Assembly: GCA_000004695.1 (NCBI GenBank)
Contig: CM000155.2
Span: 2,048,001-2,112,000, forward strand
Direction of reading: 5' to 3'
From: Dictyostelium discoideum
Taxonomy: Eukaryota
DNA length: 64,000 bases
In this document: piece by piece, positions 32,743 through 47,737 of the stretch
Position numbering within the stretch: the first letter of the stretch is position 1
Layout of the letters: the number at the start of each line of letters is the position of its first letter
Made by a program: the position numbers and the translations under genes
The notes under the pieces: generated by a model
Database searches by the model: none
Seen by the model: the letters and a program-made list of their open reading frames with translations, nothing else
Told to the model about the DNA's origin: nothing

Positions 32743-33071
32743 AATAAAATTTAAAAAATTAATTAAAATAATAAAATAATAAATATATTTAAAACAATTC
32801 AATTGATTGTAACATAAAATATCTTATTTTATTTAAAATTTTTAAAATTTATTGATGAGTCAATATTTAAAAAATAATTTTTAAGATTTGCATTTAGATA
32901 TTTTTTAATTTTTAATATCTTGATTTTTTTTTTTTTCTTTTTTTTATTTCTCGAAGCCCCATTTTATTTTTAATATATATTTTTTTTATTTAGAATATGA
33001 TTTGAGAATATGGTTTGAGAATAAGAAATATTATTTATCTTTTTCTAATTATTATTAAAATTTTTTTTATA

Positions 33072-33106
<35 letters not shown>

Positions 33107-33219
33107 ATAAAAAGAAAATTTTTTTTCTATTTTTAATTATAAAATAAATATTAATAAAAATTTAAAAACATAAAATTTATAAAATATTTTAAATAAAAAA
33201 AAAAATCAATAAAAGAAAA

Positions 33220-34119
33220 ATGTCAATTTTAATTACTGGTAGTACTGGCAAATTTGGAAAAAATTCAATCGAATTTTTATTATCAAAAGGTGTTGACCCA
33301 AAATCAATAATTGCATTGGTTCGTGAAGAATCAAAAGGTAAACAATTCCAAGAAAAAGGTTTAAATGTTAGAATTGGTGATTATACAAATGAAGAATCTT
33401 TAGTAAAGGCTTTCCAAGGTATTGAAAAATTATTATTCATTTCATCAAGTGATATTGAAAATAGAATTGATCATCATAATAATGTAATTAAAGCAGCTAA
33501 ACAAGTTGGTACAATTAAACACTTGGTTTATACAAGTTTCTTTAGAAAAGAAGAGGTTGAAAAAAGTGGTAATTCTTCAATTGGTTTTGTTGGTAAACCA
33601 CATATTATTGCTGAAGATTTGATTGAAAAATCTGGAATAAATTATACAATTCTTCAAAATATTCTTTATACCGATTTCTTAACAGAATTCTTTTTTGGTG
33701 AAAAGGTATTAGAGAATGGTATTTTTTTCCCAGCAGGTAATGGTATTGGTAACTATGCCATTAGAAAAGATATGGCTGAAGCTGCAGTAAATATATTATT
33801 GGATGAAAATCAACAAAAACATCTAAATAAAAAGTATATCATTTCTAATGAAGAAAGTTCATCATTTGAAGATGCTGCTAAAATTCTCTCTGAAATCAGT
33901 GGTAAAACTCTTTCATATACAAGTCCAGATGTTGCAACATTTGAAAACACTTTAACTGGTTTTGGTGTCCCTCCAGTTTACATTCAACTATCAGTTGCTT
34001 TTGGTTTGGCCATTCAAAATAATGAGTTTAATACCCTTAAAACTGATCTTTCAACATTGTTAAATAGAAAACCAACTACTTTAAAACAATTTTTATTTGA
34101 AACTTATAAAAAACAATAA
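33220..34119 (+). CDS. NmrA-like NAD(P)-binding atypical short-chain reductase (299 aa)
   Basis: The N-terminal Rossmann motif is ILITGSTGKFGKNSIEFLL (GxxGxxG), with overall NmrA/quinone-oxidoreductase-2-like architecture (..VRIGDYTNEESLVKAFQGIEKLLFISS...). Confidence 0.7.
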   Translation: MSILITGSTGKFGKNSIEFLLSKGVDPKSIIALVREESKGKQFQEKGLNVRIGDYTNEESLVKAFQGIEKLLFISSSDIENRIDHHNNVIKAAKQVGTIKHLVYTSFFRKEEVEKSGNSSIGFVGKPHIIAEDLIEKSGINYTILQNILYTDFLTEFFFGEKVLENGIFFPAGNGIGNYAIRKDMAEAAVNILLDENQQKHLNKKYIISNEESSSFEDAAKILSEISGKTLSYTSPDVATFENTLTGFGVPPVYIQLSVAFGLAIQNNEFNTLKTDLSTLLNRKPTTLKQFLFETYKKQ

Positions 34120-34149
34120 ATCCCATTGATTATAAAACAAATTAATTTG

Positions 34150-34305
34150 TTTTGTGTTTTGTCCACAATTTCGCTTCTTTTTTGTAGGCATTTGTATTAC
34201 TAAATATTTATGGTGTTGTTTGTAATTTTCATCTTATTTCTTTTTATTTTTTTTATTTACTTTGAAAAGTTAAAAATCTGGAAATTTTCTGATTAACTTG
34301 ATTCC

Positions 34306-34336
<31 letters not shown>

Positions 34337-34482
34337 AGTGTTAGTCAGAGAGTAATGAGTGAGTTGTTTTATTTTATGAGATGTTTGGGTAGTGGTATTG
34401 AGTATAGTGGTGAGTTCTATTGTCTTCTGAATTGCAATAGTTATAGCGAGATTAATGAGTCTAGTTTGTTTTGTTTTTCATG
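34150..34482 (-). mobile_element. Truncated TRE5-A/DRE-like non-LTR retrotransposon fragment (ORF2 3' end + oligo(A) + part of B-module); its tRNA-proximal end lies 48 bp upstream of tRNA-Leu.
   Basis: 34340-34482 is a close copy of 35172-35310 (the 3' end of ORF2 of the full element). 34311-34338 is poly(T), which is poly(A) on the element strand. 34160-34310 matches 39875-40020 / 34960-35100 (B-module-like). The right boundary at 34482 is 48 bp from the tRNA-Leu 5' end at 34530, which is the typical TRE5 target distance. Confidence 0.65.
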
Positions 34483-34529
34483 AAAAAAACACTACGTATT
34501 ATGTTGTAATAATAATAATTTTCAAACAA

Positions 34530-34611
34530 GTAAGCTTGCCCGAGCTGGTTTAAGGGGTTGCATTAAGGCTGCAATATCATTGATACAAGGGTTCGAATCC
34601 CTTAGCTTACA
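34530..34611 (+). tRNA. tRNA-Leu (anticodon AAG), class II with long variable arm
   Basis: The acceptor stem GTAAGCT/AGCTTAC is 7 bp. The D-arm is GCCCGAGCTGGTTTAAGGGGT. The anticodon stem TTGCA/TGCAA carries loop TTAAGGC (U33, anticodon AAG). The variable arm is ATCATTGAT. The T-arm GGGTTCGAATCCC (B box) is followed by discriminator A. Confidence 0.8.
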
Positions 34612-34642
34612 ATAATTTTAAAAATTATTTTTCAGGATTATA

Positions 34643-34675
<33 letters not shown>

Positions 34676-35103
34676 TGAATTGGATAACGCAATTATTATT
34701 TGCTTCTCCTTGAGATGCTAGATCTCATTTTATTTTATTTTTTTTTTTTTTTTTTACAGGGTCTCTAAAAGAGGGGTTACCTTCCTTTTTTTTTTTTTTT
34801 TTTTTTTGGGTTCGAATTTTGAATTGTATTATTACTTTGGATTAAAACCTTTTTTTTGCCCAAACTTTTTTCTAAATTTTTTTTTATTTTATCGCCGGGT
34901 TCGGGATTGAGGTTTATGACGTATTTGAATGGTTTTTTTTTTAATGGGGTTTTATCCACAATTTGGCTTTTTTTTTGTAGGCCATTGGGGTGGCTAAAAA
35001 TTGGGGGGGTGGTTGGGGAATTTCCATTTAATTTCCTTCCAATTTTTAAAATTTTCCTTAAAAAGGTTAAAAATCGGGAAATTTTTGGATTAACTGGGGT
35101 TCC

Positions 35104-35171
<68 letters not shown>

Positions 35172-38100
35172 TTATTTATAGAAAGTACTGAGTGAATTAT
35201 TGTATTTTTTGAGATGTTTAGGAAGTTCTATTGCGTGAAGAGGTGAGTTCCATTGTCTGCTAAATTGTAATAGCTTTAGCGAGATTAGTGAGTCTAATTT
35301 ATTTTGTTCTTCTGGCCGTTGCTTTGATTTGATTCTTAATGTTTTGTTTATAACCGCTTGTGTCCTGTCCCATGCAGCTCTTTGTGTTTTAATTAGTTCA
35401 CGTATGACTTGTTGTCTGTGAATTATTATTTCTTTTTCATCGTGAATGAGTTTATTTCTTTTGTGCCAGATTTTATCGAATATAATAGCTATTAAATTGG
35501 CTACTAGTGCAATTTGTAGATGGTTTAAAATCTTCACATTCCAGGTGTGAGTGGTGTGTCCACACTTAGTTAGGGTGTAGTTGAAGATTTCTTGTGTGTT
35601 TTTGATGTGGGCTTTGCAGTTGAAGAATATATGTTCTGAGGTCTCATCTTCCCCACACTGTTGGCATGGCATGTTGTATATTTTTGGTAGTGCTTTCAGT
35701 GTGTATCTCCATAATAGATCTCTACCTTTCATGTTTATTATTTTTTTGATTTCTTTAAATGGAAGGTGTTTGCTATTAATTTTGGTCATTATTTCTTTTT
35801 GGCCAGGAGTTGGTATGAATTTGTTGTGTTCAGGAGATTGAGTTGTCATCATATCCTCGTATATTTTTTTTAATTTTGGGAGGTGTTCGTAGTGTGTTTG
35901 TTTATTTTGTGGAGTTTTTAATTGGGTCCATGCTTGCTTGCATTGCCAGTGTAGTTGTAGTTGATTTTGTTTTGTTGTTGTTTTGTTGTTGTTGTTGTTT
36001 TTGAGTTCCTCTTCCCACAGTTTTATATATGAACTAGGAGTGTTACTTACTCTTTGGTGGAGGTATCTTTCGAATAACCATGCTTTCTGTGCTAGTTCTC
36101 TTGTCTTCAGGTTCCATAAGTTTAGGCCACCATTGATATAGTTGTTTTGTCTTCTTTGTAGTGAAAGAGAGTTTTTAGATTTTGTGTTGAAAACGAATTT
36201 TACGATGTTATTTTCAATACTATTGTGTTGTGGTGTGGTGTTGATGTAAGTGTGGAACGTTAACTGAGATAGTGCATATGTTTTTGCCATTATGAGTCTG
36301 CCCATATAGGTTGATGAAGTTGAGTTCCATGTTACTAGTTTAGCTCTGATGTTGTCTGAGATTGTATTGATTTTGGATTTGATACCCTTATTGTTGAAGT
36401 CAAAGCCGAGGTACCTTTCGTTTGATTTTATGACGGTGTATAGCGTTCTGGTGTTCCATTTGAAAGTGATACACGAGCATTTGGTTTGGTTTATTTTTGC
36501 GCTGGTTGCTTGGCAAAACTTCTTGATCCATTCATTCATGAGGAAATGGTCCATAAAGTTGTATGCTATTGTTGCTGTATCATCGGCGAACTGTAGTATT
36601 TTAATGGTTTCTTTGGTTACACCATTGATGCAGCGGTCATTTATTATAGTAGTTGCCATGCATTCAACCACTAATGCGAAGATAGTGGGAGAGATAGGAT
36701 CACCTTGTTTGGTTCCTCTTTTTGATGTAAAGCTTTTAGATAATGAGTTATTGATGTACACTGATGTTTCTGATTCATTGAGTAAGTTCATTATTGTGAG
36801 GACCATTTTGAGTGGTAGTTTTAGATGTGCAAGAGTACGTAGAATGGCGTTATGTGAGATTGAATCGAATGCTTTTTCAAAATCATAAAATGTTATGATT
36901 GGTTCCATATCCTCTTTTGTGTTAATCTCTCGTTTTATTATTTCTATTGTTGAGTTTAAGGTGATGATGTTATCGTGCAGTAGTCTTCTTGGTACGAATC
37001 CAGTTTGGAATGGTGAGATTATTTTGTTTAAGAACTTCAGGATCCTATTGTTGATTATTTTCGAATAGATTTTGTAATCGACATTTAGAAGTGTTATTGG
37101 TCTATAGTTATCCAGGTTGTTTGGGTCTCCTTTGTTTTTATATATAGTAATCAATATCCCTTGTTTGAAGTCCTTTGGGATTGTTGTGTTCCAGAAGTGA
37201 TTGTATAGTTTTGATATTATTGGTAGAATTTCATTAATGTGGTTTTTGTAAAATGTTGGAAGGAGTCCATCTTTACCAGGTGCTTTTCCTTCTTGTATTT
37301 TTTCAATGCCTAGTCTGATTTCGTATTCTTCTATTGGTTGATTAATTTCGTCCAATATCTTTTGATCAATCCTTTTATTGAATGTTTTTAGGAGTTCGTG
37401 GTGAGTGTCTTCGTTGCATTCTCTCTTCTGGTACAGGTTCTCGTAATATCTTCTTGCTACTTCGAGGATATCCTCGTTTTTTGTTACCAAACAATTGTTG
37501 CTTGGATCTAGAATTTGAGGGATTTCATTTGTCTTTCTTTGGACTTTTAACCTTCTGGTTAAGTATTTTGATGGTGTTTCTTTGTTGTTGATGTGGGTGT
37601 TGGTTTGGTTTGCTTGTTTTATTCTTACTTGTTCCTTTAGAATATTGTTGATCTCTTCTTTAAGGAAGATTGCTCTTGAATCTTTGGCTGTTTCGAGTTT
37701 TTCTGCGAGTTCTTTTAGTTTGTTTTTGGTTTTATTGCTTTCTCTAATTTCTATATTAATTGACAGTTTCTTTATTTCATCTTTTAGTTTCAACCATTGT
37801 TCGCAAATGTTTAATTTGTACCATTTGCTGGTGTTCTCTTCGAATTTTTTATTGTAGTATTTAATTGTTTTATTAATTTTGAGGCTGGTTGAATTCATTT
37901 TGAGAGTTTCTAGGTTTTGTCTCCATAGTCTTTCTCCTTTCTTTTGTTGCTCGTATTCTGGTATTTTTAATTCAATGATTACCATGTTGTGATCAGATTT
38001 TAATTTGATTTCCTTAGTAGTAACTATTGGGTTTAGATGGAGTATCTTCTTTGAGACAAAGACCCTATCGATGGTTGATTTGTTTCTTGGAAATGTGATT

Positions 38101-38393
38101 CCATTCTTAATTTCTGTAAATTCGAATTCGTCGAAGATTGTTTTAATATATTTGTTAAGGTTATTATCCACTGAACAGTCTACATTGAAGTCTCCAGTTA
38201 TAATATCGCTGTGTAGTATTTCTTCTGTGAGATTTTCCTTATACCATTCATGTCTTTCGTTTGACTTTGCTGGGGCATAAATGGTTGTGCATTTGATCTG
38301 TGTTTTTGCAATCATCCATTCGGAAGATATAATTCTTTCGTTTATTGTTTTTGTTGTTGTTTTTATTTGGGTGTTGATGATGATTTGTGACAC
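35172..38393 (-). CDS. TRE5-A ORF2: apurinic/apyrimidinic-type endonuclease + reverse transcriptase polyprotein (>=1073 aa)
   Basis: The N-terminal APE-like motifs are ..ITGDFNVDCS.. The RT motifs are FYDFEKAFDSISHNAILRTL (F.D..KAFD) and ILQFADDTATIA (the FADD/YXDD box). A C-terminal Cys/His-rich region is CQQCGEDETSEHIFFNC. The open frame extends upstream of the GTG at 38393 to ~38480 with no in-frame ATG. Confidence 0.8.
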   Translation of the reverse strand: MSQIIINTQIKTTTKTINERIISSEWMIAKTQIKCTTIYAPAKSNERHEWYKENLTEEILHSDIITGDFNVDCSVDNNLNKYIKTIFDEFEFTEIKNGITFPRNKSTIDRVFVSKKILHLNPIVTTKEIKLKSDHNMVIIELKIPEYEQQKKGERLWRQNLETLKMNSTSLKINKTIKYYNKKFEENTSKWYKLNICEQWLKLKDEIKKLSINIEIRESNKTKNKLKELAEKLETAKDSRAIFLKEEINNILKEQVRIKQANQTNTHINNKETPSKYLTRRLKVQRKTNEIPQILDPSNNCLVTKNEDILEVARRYYENLYQKRECNEDTHHELLKTFNKRIDQKILDEINQPIEEYEIRLGIEKIQEGKAPGKDGLLPTFYKNHINEILPIISKLYNHFWNTTIPKDFKQGILITIYKNKGDPNNLDNYRPITLLNVDYKIYSKIINNRILKFLNKIISPFQTGFVPRRLLHDNIITLNSTIEIIKREINTKEDMEPIITFYDFEKAFDSISHNAILRTLAHLKLPLKMVLTIMNLLNESETSVYINNSLSKSFTSKRGTKQGDPISPTIFALVVECMATTIINDRCINGVTKETIKILQFADDTATIAYNFMDHFLMNEWIKKFCQATSAKINQTKCSCITFKWNTRTLYTVIKSNERYLGFDFNNKGIKSKINTISDNIRAKLVTWNSTSSTYMGRLIMAKTYALSQLTFHTYINTTPQHNSIENNIVKFVFNTKSKNSLSLQRRQNNYINGGLNLWNLKTRELAQKAWLFERYLHQRVSNTPSSYIKLWEEELKNNNNNKTTTKQNQLQLHWQCKQAWTQLKTPQNKQTHYEHLPKLKKIYEDMMTTQSPEHNKFIPTPGQKEIMTKINSKHLPFKEIKKIINMKGRDLLWRYTLKALPKIYNMPCQQCGEDETSEHIFFNCKAHIKNTQEIFNYTLTKCGHTTHTWNVKILNHLQIALVANLIAIIFDKIWHKRNKLIHDEKEIIIHRQQVIRELIKTQRAAWDRTQAVINKTLRIKSKQRPEEQNKLDSLISLKLLQFSRQWNSPLHAIELPKHLKKYNNSLSTFYK

Positions 38394-38605
38394 CCCTTGT
38401 CCTGTTTTATCAATTGGTGCGTGGTGTGTTATTTTGTTTTTATATTGTTGATTTATTGAGTAAATTTTATTTGTTTTTATATTTGTTTCAGTTAGAAGTG
38501 CTGCGTCCAGCTTGTTGTTGTCTAATACGGTGTTTATTATGCTGGCAGATTGGATGGTGTTGGATCCTTGGACGTTCCAAACACCTATTCTTATTGTGTT
38601 TTTCT

Positions 38606-39873
38606 TTATAGTTTTATTTGGGGTAGATTTTTATCTACCTTTTGAAGTTTCTGGTTTATTTTGTCTTCTAACTGATCTTTACTTTGTTCGTTGTGTTGTT
38701 GGTCTTGTGTGTTTGTGGGGTTTTTTGATTTACTGATTTGTTTTAGAATTTCCTTGTTGAAGTTGTCTATATCTTCATCCATTTTTGTTTTTATGCTTTT
38801 TTGTCCATATTCACCCAATTTTGGTTTGACTGGTGTTTTGTTGGTCCTGTTTGTTTTGTCTTGTTGTTTGTTTTTTGGTGTGTTTAACAATTTACTTGGT
38901 GAATCAATAATTTTCGATGGTGTACCATAGGTTGGGCTGAAACTCATGATATGTTTTATTGGAGAGGAGAAGAACCATTGATTTGAAGGGATTGAAAGTG
39001 GGAATTCTATTTTTCTTATTGCATCAGTGTTTGGGCTGGTGAAGTCGAAGATATCATTTACCTCTCTAAGTTTTTCTTCCGTTGTTAGTCTCTTTGTTTC
39101 GCCGTGTTGTTTTATTGGTGTATTGTATGGAGATGGTGGTTCAATAGGTTTTTCTGATTTTGTTTTAATTTCTTGATTTTTTATCGATTGGGTATTGATC
39201 TCATTCTCTATTCTTGTTAGTTCATCTACGTTTTCTAGTGATGCATCTATTACCTTTTGAGCTGTATCATCTAGGGCCATAAATGTTTTATCATTAGATG
39301 AGGAGGTGATTGGTGGGATAATGATTGTTCTTTTTCCTTGTTTTGGTATTTGTTCTGATGTAGATTTTGGTTGTTGTTCATCTGATTGTTTTTTATTTTT
39401 GTTTTCTTCTTGATTTTCTGGTAATGAGGTTTGATCTCTCCATCCTTTGTTGGAGTGACCAATTAATGTTAGATTGTCTAGTTCAATGATAGTATCATAT
39501 TCTTCTACGACTCTTTTCACTGTTTTGATAATTAGAGTTTCGCCTTTAATTTCAGATTTAATTAGTTTACATCCTTCATTTTCTATTACCCATTCTATTT
39601 CTGTGAGTGATTTATACCAATCGAAATCCGTATACATATTTTTTGGTCTTAGAGTGGTTATAAATTGTCCTTTTAATTCTGCATCGAACATATTTACAAA
39701 ATAGATTACTGTACTAATACTGTCTGTGAGAATTTTGAATGTATTATTACTTTTGATTAAAACATCTTTTTTGTCCAAACTTTTTTCTAAATCTTTTTTT
39801 ATTTTATCGTCTGGTTCGTGATTGATGTTTATGACGTATTTGAATTGTTTTTTTTTTAAATGAGTTTTATCCA
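38606..39873 (-). CDS. TRE5-A ORF1 protein (422 aa, basic; function unknown)
   Basis: The first open frame of the element follows the B-module (MDKTHLKKKQFKYVININHEPDDKIKK...). A degenerate copy of its first ~60 codons recurs at 34777-34959. The element is retroelement-typical in having an ORF1 upstream of the RT ORF. Confidence 0.7.
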
Positions 39874-40019
39874 CAATTTCGCTTATTTTTTGTAGGCCTT
39901 TGGGGTGCTTAATATTTGGGGGGGTGGTTGGGAATTTCCTTTTATTTTCCTTCTATTTTTTAAAATTTTCTTTAAAAAGTTAAAAATCTGGAAATTTTTT
40001 GATTAACTTGGGGTCCCCG

Positions 40020-40077
<58 letters not shown>

Positions 40078-40080
<3 letters not shown>

Positions 40081-40934
40081 TCTTTTTTATATGAAAAATG
40101 AAATAATCAAAAAAAGAGATTGTTGTTGTTGTTTGTTTTTTTTCGATCTGATTATTTTTTGCTTTTTTTTGAAAATTTTGCTACGCAAAATTCTCAAAAC
40201 GAAACAAATAATAAATTACAATAAAGTAAAAAGATGGCTTTTTAAGATAGTTTATTTATTTATTTATTTGTTTTTTAAGTCTTTTTTATATGAAAAATGA
40301 AATAATCAAAAAAAGAGATTGTTGTTGTTGTTTGTTTTTTTTCGATCTGATTATTTTTTGCTTTTTTTTGAAAATTTTGCTACGCAAAATTCTCAAAACG
40401 AAACAAATAATAAATTACAATAAAGTAAAAAGATGGCTTTTTAAGATAGTTTATTTATTTATTTATTTGTTTTTTAAGTCTTTTTTATATGAAAAATGAA
40501 ATAATCAAAAAAAGAGATTGTTGTTGTTGTTTGTTTTTTTTCGATCTGATTATTTTTTGCTTTTTTTTGAAAATTTTGCTACGCAAAATTCTCAAAACGA
40601 AACAAATAATAAATTACAATAAAGTAAAAAGATGGCTTTTTAAGATAGTTTATTTATTTATTTATTTGTTTTTTAAGTCTTTTTTATATGAAAAATGAAA
40701 TAATCAAAAAAAGAGATTGTTGTTGTTGTTTGTTTTTTTTCGATCTGATTATTTTTTGCTTTTTTTTGAAAATTTTGCTACGCAAAATTCTCAAAACGAA
40801 ACAAATAATAAATTACAATAAAGTAAAAAGATGGCTTTTTAAGATAGTTTATTTATTTATTTATTTGTTTTTTAAGTCTTTTTTATATGAAAAATGAAAT
40901 AATCAAAAAAAGAGATTGTTGTTGTTGTTTGTTT
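40078..40934. repeat. Tandem array, 4.3 copies of a 199-bp unit (TRE5-A 5' 'A-module'-like repeats)
   Basis: The units at 40078, 40277, 40476 and 40675 are essentially identical, with a partial fifth unit to ~40934. Each creates an identical spurious 69-aa ORF (40091, 40290, 40489, 40688). The array is contiguous with the 5' UTR of the retroelement. Confidence 0.85.
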
Positions 40935-40983
40935 TTTTTCGATCTCAGGATTATACGATCCTAATAAAGTGATTTAATTGAAT

Positions 40984-41066
40984 TTTCATCAAACCGGCTT
41001 TGGCGCAATGGTAGCGCGATTGACTGTAGTTATATAAGTGATCAATCGGTTGCTAGTTCGAATCTG
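40984..41066 (+). tRNA. tRNA-Tyr (anticodon GTA) with ~11-nt intron 3' of the anticodon
   Basis: The acceptor stem CCGGCTT/AAGCCGG is followed by discriminator A. The D-arm is TGGCGCAATGGTAGCGC. The anticodon stem ATTGA/TCAAT encloses CTGTAG + an 11-nt insert (TTATATAAGTG) + A, which is the canonical eukaryotic tRNA-Tyr intron position. The T-arm is GCTAGTTCGAATCTGGC. Confidence 0.75.
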
Positions 41067-41100
41067 GCAAGCCGGACTTTTTTAATGTAAATCAATATAT

Positions 41101-41116
41101 CGCTGGTTCGATTCTT
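41101..41116 (+). promoter_or_regulatory. Extra B-box (ex-B) downstream of tRNA-Tyr
   Basis: GGTTCGATTC at 41105-41114 lies ~38 bp beyond the tRNA 3' end and matches the pol III B-box consensus GGTTCGAATCC. Dictyostelium tRNA genes characteristically carry such an external B box. Confidence 0.5.
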
Positions 41117-41929
41117 GGTCAGAAATGTGTCTAAAATTAGTCTCCTTTGACCAATTCTTTTAATAAGAATAATTACTTTGGATCTTAAAACACATATAAA
41201 ACTACTAGTTATTGTTTATTTCTTATATTGGATATACACTCAAAAAAAAAAAAAAAAAAAAAGAAATATATTTCCTAAAAACCCAAAGAAATAAAATCAA
41301 AAATAAAAAAGGTATTTCCCATAATTGTTTAAAAAAAAAAAAAAAATCTAAAGGTCTAAATTTGTATTTTTTTTTTTTTTTTTATCCAAATTTGATTTTT
41401 TTTTACATTTTTTTTTTTCTGTATATTTTTTATTTTTTTTTTTTTTATGTATTTTTTATTTTGTGGATGTTGAGAGTTTACCCTATTATTTCATACTTTA
41501 AATTATGGAGCTTCACCATCTGAAGCTGAAAAATTCATTTTTTATCAAAATTTAATTATCTTTTATCATATCCATCAATTACTCTCAATCCATTGTAATT
41601 GATGGACATGATAAAAGAATTTTCAATATTGATAAAAATATGAGGTTTTCAGCTTCAGATGGTGTATCTTCATAATTACCAGTAGTAAAGTATCATATTC
41701 ATTTCATAAAATTTCAAATATAGAGTTTCAAACAAAATTAATATATTTAATATTTCCTATGAAGAATTTATGCTTCTGTCCATGAAAAACTCACAATTGG
41801 AATAGAAATAACCAAACATACAATATTAATTAATTATTGATAAACCAATAAAATACAAAACAACAATTAATTAATTTAATGAATAAAAAAAAAAAAAAAA
41901 AAATTAAAACAAAGTAAAAATGAGATTTA

Positions 41930-44681
<2,752 letters not shown>

Positions 44682-44937: not shown

Positions 44938-47737
44938 TTACTTTTTTTTTTTTATTAATTTACATACTTTTTTAATTTCATTAAAATAATCTAATAGTTT
45001 TTGTTTTAAAGAGAATAGTAAATTTTTATTATTACAATTATTATAATTTGAAAATGTTATCACAATTATGAATAATGAAATTAGCAAATCTGATGATTGT
45101 GTTGTTAACCTAGTTGGTGAAATAATACCATTTTCTATAATACTACATTTATTAATGATTTTATCAATTATGGTTGGAATTATATTATCAATAATTATTG
45201 AAATGGTCTCATTATCTATATTACTAACATTATCTTTATTTGTTTGATTCAATGTGAATATTAAAATAAAATGAAATACTGTATTAAAAATATCTAAAAT
45301 TTGTTTTTTTTCTTCTTTATTATATTCATTATTTTGATTATTTTGATTATTTTGATTATTTTGATTATTTTGATTATTATTTAAAATTGATAATATTGTT
45401 TTATAAAATAAATTATTATGATTTATTTGAATATATGAAAATAATCTATAAACTTTAAAAAATTGTTGAGGTGGATTTGGGATTGTATTATTTGAACTAT
45501 TGTTATTATCGTTATTATTGTTATTAGGTGTTGTTGTTGTTGTTGTTGTTGATGATGATGAAGAATTTAAATCAATAATTTTGGTGGGTGAATTTTTGAA
45601 AGGATAATTTAAAGATAAAAATAAAATTATTGAAGAAATATCTAATTTCCATGAATGTAATAATTGAATTTCATTGAATTTTAAAATGATTGAATTAATA
45701 ATTGATATCATTGAATCGGTTGGGCTAATTTTAATTGATTTATCAATTGATTCAAATGCTNNNNNNNNNNNNNNNNNNNNNNNNNNNNNNNNNNNNNNNN
45801 NNNNNNNNNNNNNNNNNNNNNNNNNNNNNNNNNNNNNNNNNNNNNNNNNNNNNNNNNNNNGATTTATATTTATAATTTGATCAATTGGAGAAATGTGAGA
45901 ATTTACAGGTGTTAATGATGGAGTTGAAGTTGGAGTTGGAGAAGGAGTTGATGAAACGATAGTATGTTGAACAGCTAAACCAAAATCACCCAATGATACC
46001 AATAAGCCACCTCCATCAGAATTTTCTTCAAATGAACTTGATATATTGCTAAATGATGATTGTTGGTGGTGATCCTCTTCTCTAACTAAAAATACATTAC
46101 CAGGTTTTAAATCTCTATGAATGATTCCCTTGGAATGAATATATCTTAAACCAATACAAATCTGTTTAAAAATATTTAAATTCTCTTCTTCATTAACTTG
46201 ATCAGGTGGTCTATTTTCTAACCATTGACTAAGAGTTTGAGAATATAATTGCATCACAATAAATAATGTTGTAATTCTATTAATTTTTGGTGAAACAATA
46301 TTATTTTTATTATTATTATTATTGTTATTGTTATTATTATTATTTATTGATGGTTTTAATAAAGAATTATTTTGAGTTAATGATGATCTTAAACTTGGTG
46401 GTTGTGATTTTTGTTGTTGTTGTTGTTGTTGTTGTTGGTATTGTTTTGGTGGCATTGAGATTGGTGGAGTTGTTGAAGTTGGAATTGATGATGGATTTGG
46501 AATTAAATCATCATTATTTTCAAATACACCACTATAATCACTATCAGATTCTGATAATGAATCATCATCTGTTTCTTCCTCACCTTCACTTGATGAAAAT
46601 GAACGACGATGACGACTATGATTAAATGATTCAGTATCAGTATCATTTTGTATATTAGTCATAGTACTACGATTTGTGTCATCGAATCCTTGAGAATCAT
46701 CTTCATCGGATTCTTCATCTGAACCATCATCCAAACTAAAACTTGTGTAATGTTTTTTTGGTGTCTTAAAGAAGCCAACTCCATTACTACTAACATCATT
46801 TGAATCATCAGAATCATCATAACTCTTTTTAAAACGTGATGAATTGATCATTGATTCTCGAATTGATGTTTGTTTATTAAATTGTTTAAAATCTTCATCA
46901 TGTGGGAATTGAAGTTTATATAAACTATCATCAGATGATGATGAAGAAGATGACGATGATGATGATGAAATATCATCATCATTATCATCACCTGCACCAG
47001 ATTGGTCCAAAGCTTTTTTCTTACTGTTATTATTATTATTATTTACATTTTTCTTTTTTTGTGGTGAAACTTTCTTTTTGGCTTTATTAACTCTACGATT
47101 ACATGGATTATCACTCTCATTCAAGTAGGAAGCCTCTTCTGAAGTGGTTCCCCAATTGCCATCGAATAATAAATGATTGTTATAAATGATATTTTTGATA
47201 TCACTATCAATTTGTTTACCATTTGAGGTTGACAATGATGTTGATGCCATTGATGATGATGGTGGTAATAATTCCTCAGTCTCTAACCAAGCTGAATGGT
47301 ATCTAACGATATTTCTATGATTTAATGATGCCAAAGTTTTTACCTCTCTCAAAACCTTTTCTAAAAAGGTTTTGGTGGTGTTTTTAAATGGTATCTTTTT
47401 CAATGCATAATATTCTCCATCCAATTTATTCTTTACCTTAAAAACTGATCCATATCCACCTTTTCCAACTTTTTCTATTTCACAAAAATCCTCTTCATAT
47501 CTGGAAACTTTTAATTGTTGTTGAAATTGTTGAAGTTGTGAGTTTGGATGTAATAAGTGAACTTGTGGTATTGGTTGTTGATTTTGTTGGTTTTGTTGTT
47601 GAAATTGTTGTTGTTGTTGTTGTTGTCCACAACTAAAAATAATAAATAGAAAGTAAGTGTTTTTAAAAAAAAGAAAAAAGAAAAAAAGAAATTCGTAATA
47701 AAAGATATTAGTAATAGATTGATATAAATAAAATAAA

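Follow-up and report, generated by a model that had tools for sequence, protein, structure and literature searches.

Structure of the locus

The window (the whole analyzed stretch of 64,000 nucleotides of Dictyostelium discoideum DNA) contains a tRNA-Tyr(GTA) gene on the plus strand (40994–41077, predicted by ARAGORN; 57.8 bits with the Rfam tRNA model) and a 6,296-bp non-LTR retrotransposon on the minus strand (34650–40945). [quoted passage not shown] The Rfam scan of the region 33000–42500 yielded nothing besides two tRNAs. The NmrA-like gene beyond the element is an exact match to DDB_G0292738, which places the window on chromosome 6 of AX4.

The element lies inside a target-site duplication (TSD). 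One 17-bp copy, CAGGATTATACGATCCT, occupies positions 40946–40962 on the side of the tRNA gene, and the identical 17-mer is found at the distal side (34633–34649), immediately behind a T run of 27 nt. The tRNA-proximal junction recurs at the orthologous locus L005 of the independent assembly described below. At the distal copy the final T of CAGGATTATACGATCCT is ambiguous with the A-tail of the element.

On the minus strand the order of parts is as follows: A-module array, oligo(A)56, B-module, ORF1, ORF2, oligo(A)63, B-module, C-module, and A-tail. The array is separated from the 289-bp 5' B-module (39733–40021) by the internal oligo(A)56 run (40022–40077, oligo(T) on the plus strand). A run of this kind, variable in length, is present between the A-array and the B-module in all other loci compared. 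The 5' B-module contains the start of ORF1 and is a direct repeat of the 3' B-module (34818–35107), which in turn is preceded by oligo(A)63 (35108–35170). With the adjoining runs included, the repeated pair spans 39733–40077 and 34818–35163 at a spacing of 4915 bp, and both copies align to B-modules of other loci. The C-module (34677–34817, 141 bp) forms the 3'-end of the element and is located between the 3' B-module and the oligo(A) tail of 27 nt (34650–34676).

Two minus-strand ORFs lie between the B-module copies, one of 422/444 codons and one of 1073/1152 codons with a reverse transcriptase domain. The former, ORF1 (444 codons, 38606–39940), has D. discoideum ORF1 proteins as relatives at 97–99% identity. 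The ORF2 frame (35172–38630) is open from 38630 and overlaps the end of ORF1, whose stop codon is at 38606–38608. The Pfam search of ORF2 produced a match to RVT_1 (E=2.9e-33) and weak matches to the endonuclease Exo_endo_phos (E=0.021) and the zinc finger zf-RVT (E=0.039), the latter two below the Pfam cut-offs; the order APE-RT-ZF is as published.

[quoted passage not shown] Base-by-base comparison showed that the units starting at 40078, 40277, 40476 and 40675, described as perfect or near-perfect in the initial annotation of this DNA, are 100% identical at all 199 positions. On the element strand these four full units are 40675–40873, 40476–40674, 40277–40475 and 40078–40276. Four perfect 199-mers are impossible by chance. 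The 199-bp periodicity first breaks at 40946, and the total length of the array is 868 bp, or 4.36 units: four full ones and a 72-bp partial unit (40874–40945), which matches the final 72 nt of every full unit exactly and is further referred to as the segment X. The first nucleotide of the element is thus 40945, and its sense strand opens with AGATCGAAAAAAAAC. The array end initially placed near 40934 was 11 bp too short, and the region drawn around it, ending at 40952, took in 7 bp of the flank. The array had been correctly positioned between the TSD proximal to tRNA-Tyr and the oligo(A)/B-module: it is bounded by the TSD at 40946–40962 on one side and by oligo(T)56 at 40022–40077, followed by the B-module, on the other.

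Identification of the element

We assign the 199-bp repeat, with high confidence, to the A-module array, the 5' promoter region of a complete non-LTR retrotransposon TRE5-A.1 (formerly DRE or DREa). This confidence applies to the identity of the repeat as a TRE5-A A-module array, and the collapse of units discussed below is graded separately.

The structure of TRE5-A was published as AB-ORF1/ORF2-BC with the B-module duplicated in the 3' untranslated region (PMC3159450), and the element in the window has this layout, including the duplicated B-module. [quoted passage not shown] We also located the TRE5-A ORF1 and TRE5-A ORF2 qRT-PCR primers, with sequences taken from PMC4559204. Rep-109, Rep-75, Rep-176 and the 5' half of Rep-108 each have one site with zero or one mismatch; the sites of Rep-108 and Rep-109 are in ORF1 and those of Rep-75 and Rep-176 in ORF2, and the orientation is as expected, with the forward primers on the minus strand and the reverse ones on the plus strand.

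At the other end of the element, the C-module nucleotides mutated in an earlier study, C38, A35, C26 and T15 as counted from the 3'-end (PMC3159450), are all present when the 3'-end of the C-module is set at 34677. The terminal 54 nt, for which a stem-loop has been published, fold with the energy of −16.9 kcal/mol at 22 C, compared to the published −20.08 (mfold), and the module is 141 bp long versus the published 134–137 bp.

[quoted passage not shown] Its assignment to the A-module is based on this position, on its length (199 bp versus the published 200 bp) and on recurrence at other TRE5-A loci. Together, the AB-ORF1/ORF2-BC layout, the spacing to the tRNA gene, the primers, the C-module nucleotides and the recurrence bear out the earlier suggestion that the unit is the TRE5-A A-module.

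The element shares with TRE5-A.1 the 48-bp tRNA spacing, the orientation, the AB-ORF1/ORF2-BC structure, the C-module and the oligo(A) tail. After removal of the three extra units it is 5,699 bp long, compared to the published 5.7 kb. The TSD is 17 bp here versus 10–16 bp in published descriptions. Finally, the accessible papers describe a single 200-bp A-module, whereas each genomic copy examined has at least 1.36 units, and many have from 2 to 21. The element is an ordinary, standard member of a well-studied family, whose A-module promoter and targeting are already well described.

The unit in other TRE5-A copies

The comparison set comprised 25 loci of the D. discoideum assembly GCA_054883475.1, obtained by exact look-up of three ORF1 variants (P0007–P0009). 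Using blastn, the unit from the window was found at 97–100% identity directly upstream of oligo(A)/B/ORF1 in 24 arrays of this assembly, 22 of which are independent and have a visible 5'-end. At L007 and L019 the same blastn search with the window unit found no array before the queried ORF1. The called tRNA gene upstream of an array is usually 44–51 bp away on the opposite strand, with two arrays much farther; the spacing in L005 and in the window reads as 39 bp in this comparison due to over-extension of the blastn hit.

The copy number equals 1.3–1.4 in ten arrays, 2.0–2.4 in five and 3.3–3.4 in two, and the remaining seven are longer, with 7.4, 8.3, 8.4, 10.4, at least 10 (this array ends at the edge of the locus), 19.4 and 21.4 units. 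The range from 1.3 to 21.4 among the 24 arrays agrees with the variable number of A-modules proposed for this family in the initial annotation. Given the presence of the array at many TRE5-A loci, tandem A-modules are normal and widespread in TRE5-A rather than special to the window copy. TRE5-A copies differ about 16-fold in how many promoter modules they carry.

Three haplotypes of the unit were observed. The window unit is of type I. Type II differs by the substitution 31C>T, insertion of A at position 106 and deletion of A at 134; type III combines these changes with a deletion of AAC and is restricted to the B-proximal unit. Most arrays consist of a single haplotype, with types II and III mixed in L026, and rare differences of single units within arrays are one-base changes in the length of A-runs.

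The non-autonomous deletion derivative TRE5-A.2 has the same A-module array before the B-module and ORF1. At related loci where no ORF2 was called, the elements carry type II/III units in arrays of 1.3 to 21.4 copies. In contrast to TRE5-A.2, the element in the window has a full ORF2 and type I units, and hence we classify it as TRE5-A.1.

More distant loci were also considered. L001, which carries a relative of ORF1 (65% identity) from D. cf. discoideum, has no tandem 5' modules and no tRNA gene nearby. At the orthologous loci of two divergent strains, L027 and L028, both the element and the 199-bp unit are absent from the spacer between tRNA-Leu and tRNA-Tyr; the flanks are approximately 92% identical and the spacers have diverged to 340 and 954 bp, and these are not clean empty sites.

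Open reading frames within the units

Each unit gives rise to an identical 69-codon ORF on the plus strand, the four starting at 40091, 40290, 40489 and 40688. This ORF reads antisense to the element and is closed only with 11 nt borrowed from the following unit. Its product is a low-complexity sequence (MKNEIIKKRDCCCCLFFFDLIIFCFF...) with no match in Pfam, and the exact look-up of the 69-residue product retrieved no gene product on record. Further, two single-base indels of the type II haplotype shorten the ORF to 19 codons. These observations uphold the initial view that the ORFs are an artefact of repetition.

The location of the array directly upstream of a tRNA gene and the four identical ORFs could be taken to mean that the repeat is a host minisatellite or a regulatory repeat upstream of tRNA that happens to abut a retroelement, or that it encodes a repeated 69-residue peptide. 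We consider this practically untenable. The array is inside the TSD; the unit accompanies TRE5-A ORF1 to at least 22 unrelated loci beside different tRNA genes, and it is missing from the homologous tRNA-Leu/tRNA-Tyr spacer in the two divergent strains that lack the element. As for the peptide, besides the lack of a family match and of a gene-product record and the reduction to 19 codons in type II, 199 bp is not a whole number of codons.

Copy number at the orthologous locus

L005 in GCA_054883475.1 is the site orthologous to the window locus: it has the same flanks, junction and TSD, and the same NmrA-like gene beyond the element. Its array contains ten full units and the 72-nt segment, that is, 10.36 units versus 4.36 in the window. 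The expectation that the number of units would prove polymorphic or sensitive to assembly was therefore correct.

The remaining sequence is nearly the same. In 4.8 kb of the flank on the tRNA side, differences form two clusters (42634–42638 and 42590–42591), and one further base differs in tRNA-Leu. There are no differences in the bodies of ORF1 and ORF2. Approximately 65 substituted positions are confined to the two B-modules and the adjoining start of the C-module, namely, to the stretches 40021–39860 (5' B-module) and 35096–34780 (from the 3' B-module into the C-module), each following a long oligo(A) run. Most of these substitutions are A>C smears beside existing Cs, for instance, CACAAACAACACCAC read as CCCAACCACCCCCCC. 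In the 5' B-module 18 positions differ, 17 of them being substitutions and one an extra C at 40021. The B-module of L005 is almost identical to those of two unrelated loci, the C run differing by one base, and this agreement identifies the window as the deviating copy. To judge from its form, the substitution pattern is a product of out-of-phase base calling after a long homopolymer. There is also a 100-N gap at 45761–45860, 4.8 kb from the array. Error signatures beside the array and this gap mark a low-quality stretch of the AX4 reference.

One of the affected positions bears on ORF1. Its canonical ATG (39940–39938) reads AGG in the window, whereas in L005 ORF1 is intact and corresponds to P0009. 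We rejected the reading of the window ORF1 as a dead copy without a start codon, given that the orthologous copy is intact and the differences resemble base-calling errors; these errors alone would account for the seemingly missing start.

Three explanations of the number 4.36 were weighed. Probably it is an undercount, perfect repeats having been collapsed in the AX4 assembly of the Sanger era. A perfect 199-bp array of more than about four units should be unbridgeable by Sanger-length reads and would thus collapse. The converse error, an expansion during assembly, is excluded by the fact that the independent assembly has more units and not fewer.

Alternatively, 4.36 may be the true number for the sequenced AX4 clone, with 10.36 in the other assembly reflecting rapid expansion or contraction by unequal sister-chromatid exchange or replication slippage after the lineages split. 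Units that are 100% identical over 199 bp are an ideal substrate for unequal exchange, the copy number does span 1.3 to 21.4 between loci, and the assemblies differ at a few flank positions, hence they come from separate DNA preparations and may represent different sub-strains. On the other hand, with flanks nearly identical, six units would have had to be gained or lost in a short time, the sequence-quality problems adjoin the array with an assembly gap 4.8 kb away, and the 868 bp of perfect array are close to the maximum that Sanger-length reads would bridge, which is the size to which longer arrays would be expected to shrink. On balance we regard true instability as somewhat unlikely.

The third explanation is that the tandem array itself is an assembly artefact, formed by stacking of reads from many single-module TRE5-A copies, with the real element having one module. 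The AX4 repeats are indeed error-prone, as demonstrated by the B-module errors and the N gap. However, the independent assembly with multi-megabase contigs contains arrays of 2–21 units at many loci, this one included with 10.36, and the same artefact would have had to arise in both assemblies, which makes this explanation very unlikely.

The AX4 reference at this locus of chromosome 6 is unreliable in and around the element, and a long-read assembly is advisable when TRE5-A copies are scored as intact or defective or when small RNAs or RNA-seq reads are mapped to A-modules. Should long arrays be the true state, the reference genome would systematically under-count TRE5-A promoter arrays.

Phase of the array ends

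The 5'-ends of the arrays were located by walking back from the first full unit. More than half of the independent arrays (12 of 22) start at the identical nucleotide, AGATCG..., which is position 128 of the unit in the phasing used. Three have one to three extra templated nucleotides (starts at 125–127), four start five to seven nucleotides later, and the other three start elsewhere. Hence 19 of the 22 independent 5'-ends are confined to a stretch of 11 nt out of the 199 nt of the unit (binomial tail 1.7e-21). Random 5' truncation as the origin of the partial unit is ruled out by this clustering. The "truncated unit" of the initial annotation is, in fact, a phase-locked terminus of the element, where the 5'-ends of other copies cluster as well. 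The window copy begins exactly at the phase-locked nucleotide, and we conclude that the insertion is full-length.

On the element strand the structure can be written as (X72-Y127)n-X72, followed by oligo(A) and the B-module, with the element opening at the first base of X. In the minimal 5.7-kb form n=1, yielding X-Y-X or 1.36 units; the window copy has n=4, and others have up to n=21. X72-Y127-X72 is the minimum in every genomic copy examined. In the published description the A-module measures 200 bp and the structure is written "AB", with no mention of the extra 72-nt X (PMC3159450).

A full-text literature search found no tandem A-modules in Dictyostelium among the papers within its reach. 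The original DRE papers are said to mention tandem A-modules already. What may not be in print is the X-Y-X redundancy with its phase lock, the arrays of up to 21 perfect units, and the probable collapse and load of errors at this locus.

The plus-strand RNA of TRE5-A is the template for retrotransposition. The 200-bp A-module acts as the internal pol II promoter for this RNA and is replaceable by another promoter (PMC3159450, citing Schumann 1994), and its activity is reported to be enhanced by the upstream tRNA gene (PMC5911963). In our reading, plus-strand transcription of the outermost module would start at the first base of X (AGATCG). The suggestion relies on the phase lock and on the internal A-module promoter known from the literature, and it has a parallel in the common truncation site of mouse L1 type A monomers, which is taken to be their start site (PMC6454616). 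The phase-locked 5'-ends are consistent with a fixed start and provide a sequence-level prediction of the transcription start.

The initial annotation also placed several putative promoter modules directly upstream of a pol III gene. The array does adjoin tRNA-Tyr, but the promoters are divergent and point away from it. As they would fire away from the tRNA gene, they are presumably not functional upstream promoters of the pol III gene.

Possible mechanism of array inheritance and growth

The following sequence of events would be consistent with these data. Target-primed reverse transcription presumably placed the element at its site, 48 bp upstream of tRNA-Tyr(GTA) and with its 5'-end toward the tRNA gene. 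Every unit would be a monomer combining a promoter and a start site. RNA initiated at the outermost module would carry the whole array into daughter copies, while starts at inner modules would produce daughters with fewer modules and the same terminal phase; the latter would explain why 1.36 units is the commonest class. Units could be gained or lost when perfect units undergo unequal exchange or replication slippage, or perhaps while the cDNA is being synthesized.

The X-Y-X redundancy suggests a further route, which we put forward as doubtful. The reverse transcriptase could add units if the end of the nascent cDNA (anti-X) re-anneals to an internal X, in a transfer resembling that of strong-stop DNA, and growth would then not depend on chromosomal unequal exchange alone. 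On this view TRE5-A arrays, which reach at least 21 perfect units, may be far longer and more changeable than one would gather from the AX4 reference and the accessible papers. If unit gain mediated by reverse transcriptase does occur, Dictyostelium would be a haploid, genetically tractable model for the expansion of L1-type monomer arrays.

Comparison with mouse L1 promoters

By functional analogy, the closest counterpart of the TRE5-A array is the promoter monomer array of mouse L1 (L1Md). The A, Gf and Tf monomer arrays are likewise tandem 5' promoter units of about 200 bp, variable in number, in a non-LTR retrotransposon. The host belongs to a different eukaryotic supergroup and the element to a different clade; only functional analogy is meant, and homology is not claimed. 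The outermost L1Md monomer is cut at a preferred site marking the transcription start (PMC6454616), which resembles the clustering of 19 of 22 ends within 11 nt in the TRE5-A family.

Monomers of L1Md are additive in transcription, and highly similar monomers are under-represented in assemblies (PMC6454616). If A-modules are additive in the same way, a few long-array copies could dominate the output of plus-strand RNA and retrotransposition. As in mouse L1, extra modules would plausibly strengthen the promoter and buffer the element against 5' truncation. For expansion of L1Md arrays, unequal crossing-over or events during cDNA synthesis have been proposed (PMC6454616).

The two systems also differ. 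TRE5-A units are 100% identical within an array, whereas L1Md monomers fall into many subtypes. TRE5-A arrays reach 21 units, while 99% of L1Md promoters do not exceed 10. The place of the L1 "tether" is taken in TRE5-A by the oligo(A) run and the B-module.

Internal structure of the A-module

The 199-bp promoter unit (A-module) repeated in tandem at the 5' end of the TRE5-A.1 element contains an imperfect palindrome, GAGAATTTTGCGTAGCAAAATTTTC, found at 40171–40195 and at the matching position of every unit. The RNA of the unit has a folding Z-score of −4.25 against shuffled sequences. The palindrome might act as a dyad for factor binding or form a hairpin in the 5'-UTR.

TRE5-A arrays at other loci

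Two loci from the second D. discoideum assembly (L007 and L008; GCA_054883475.1, CM142511.1, about 3.02–3.04 Mb) contain head-to-tail repeats of TRE5-A ORF1-ORF2 units with a period of approximately 4,890 bp, the gap between ORF2 and the next ORF1 being only about 120 bp. An array of at least ten A-module units is located at the upstream end of these repeats (L008, positions 1–1989). Independent insertions seem a less likely reading of this arrangement than a tandem array of element bodies.

The A-module array begins and ends with a 72-nt segment, X. In the subfamily represented by six further loci (L021–L026), one AAC is missing from the (CAA)n run of the B-module-proximal X, whereas the 5'-terminal X retains it. 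The two X copies of an element are thus distinguishable, and this difference could serve as a tracer of unit addition.

Substitutions in the B-modules of the reference

The window was compared with the orthologous locus of the second assembly (L005), which has the same insertion. Apart from one base in the tRNA-Leu gene and homopolymer lengths, all base substitutions in this stretch of the comparison fall within 39860–40021 and 34780–35096, that is, in both B-modules and in the initial ~40 nt of the C-module. Long oligo(A) runs directly precede both stretches, and the majority of the substitutions in them are A>C smears. The pattern of these substitutions looks like a base-calling error of the reference. 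Through them the ORF1 start codon is lost in the window (AGG at 39940–39938), whereas ORF1 of L005 is intact.

The tRNA-Leu/tRNA-Tyr pair and a second TRE5-A

A fragmentary second TRE5-A is located on the minus strand at ~34141–34482. It retains only the final ~145 nt of ORF2, together with an oligo(A) run and approximately the first 170 nt of a B-module, and has neither a C-module nor an A-tail. At its 3' side, ~20 bp separate it from the NmrA-like gene's stop codon (gene at 33220–34119). Its 5' break lies ~47–50 bp upstream of the tRNA-Leu(AAG) gene (34530–34611), and therefore TRE5-A has hit both tRNA genes of the pair.

Before the insertion, the distance between tRNA-Leu(AAG) and tRNA-Tyr(GTA) was only about 69 bp (34612–34649 plus 40963–40993), so that tRNA-Leu is followed, 38 bp downstream, by the 3' end of the complete TRE5-A. 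The spacer equals 340 and 954 bp, respectively, in L027 and L028, two divergent strains that lack the element. At position 34550, in the D-loop of tRNA-Leu(AAG), the window has GGTTTAAGG and both L005 and L027 have GGTCTAAGG; the difference is either a reference error or an SNP within the tRNA gene. On the other side of the pair, GGTTCGATTC is found at 41105–41114, 28 bp downstream of tRNA-Tyr, and is conserved at ~11765–11774 of L027, a 92%-identical strain.

The tRNA-side flank

In the 4.8 kb of this flank compared with L005, differences are confined to two small clusters, 42590–42591 and 42634–42638. Both are at or near the start of a long minus-strand ORF (42621–44681), whose gene model could be affected by them. 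The same ORF contains a perfect (TAT)35 microsatellite (43811–43917), and several TAT-repeat-like stretches are spread over L027 and L028. An assembly gap of 100 N (45761–45860) is situated 4.8 kb from the array, and a single N occurs at 49156.
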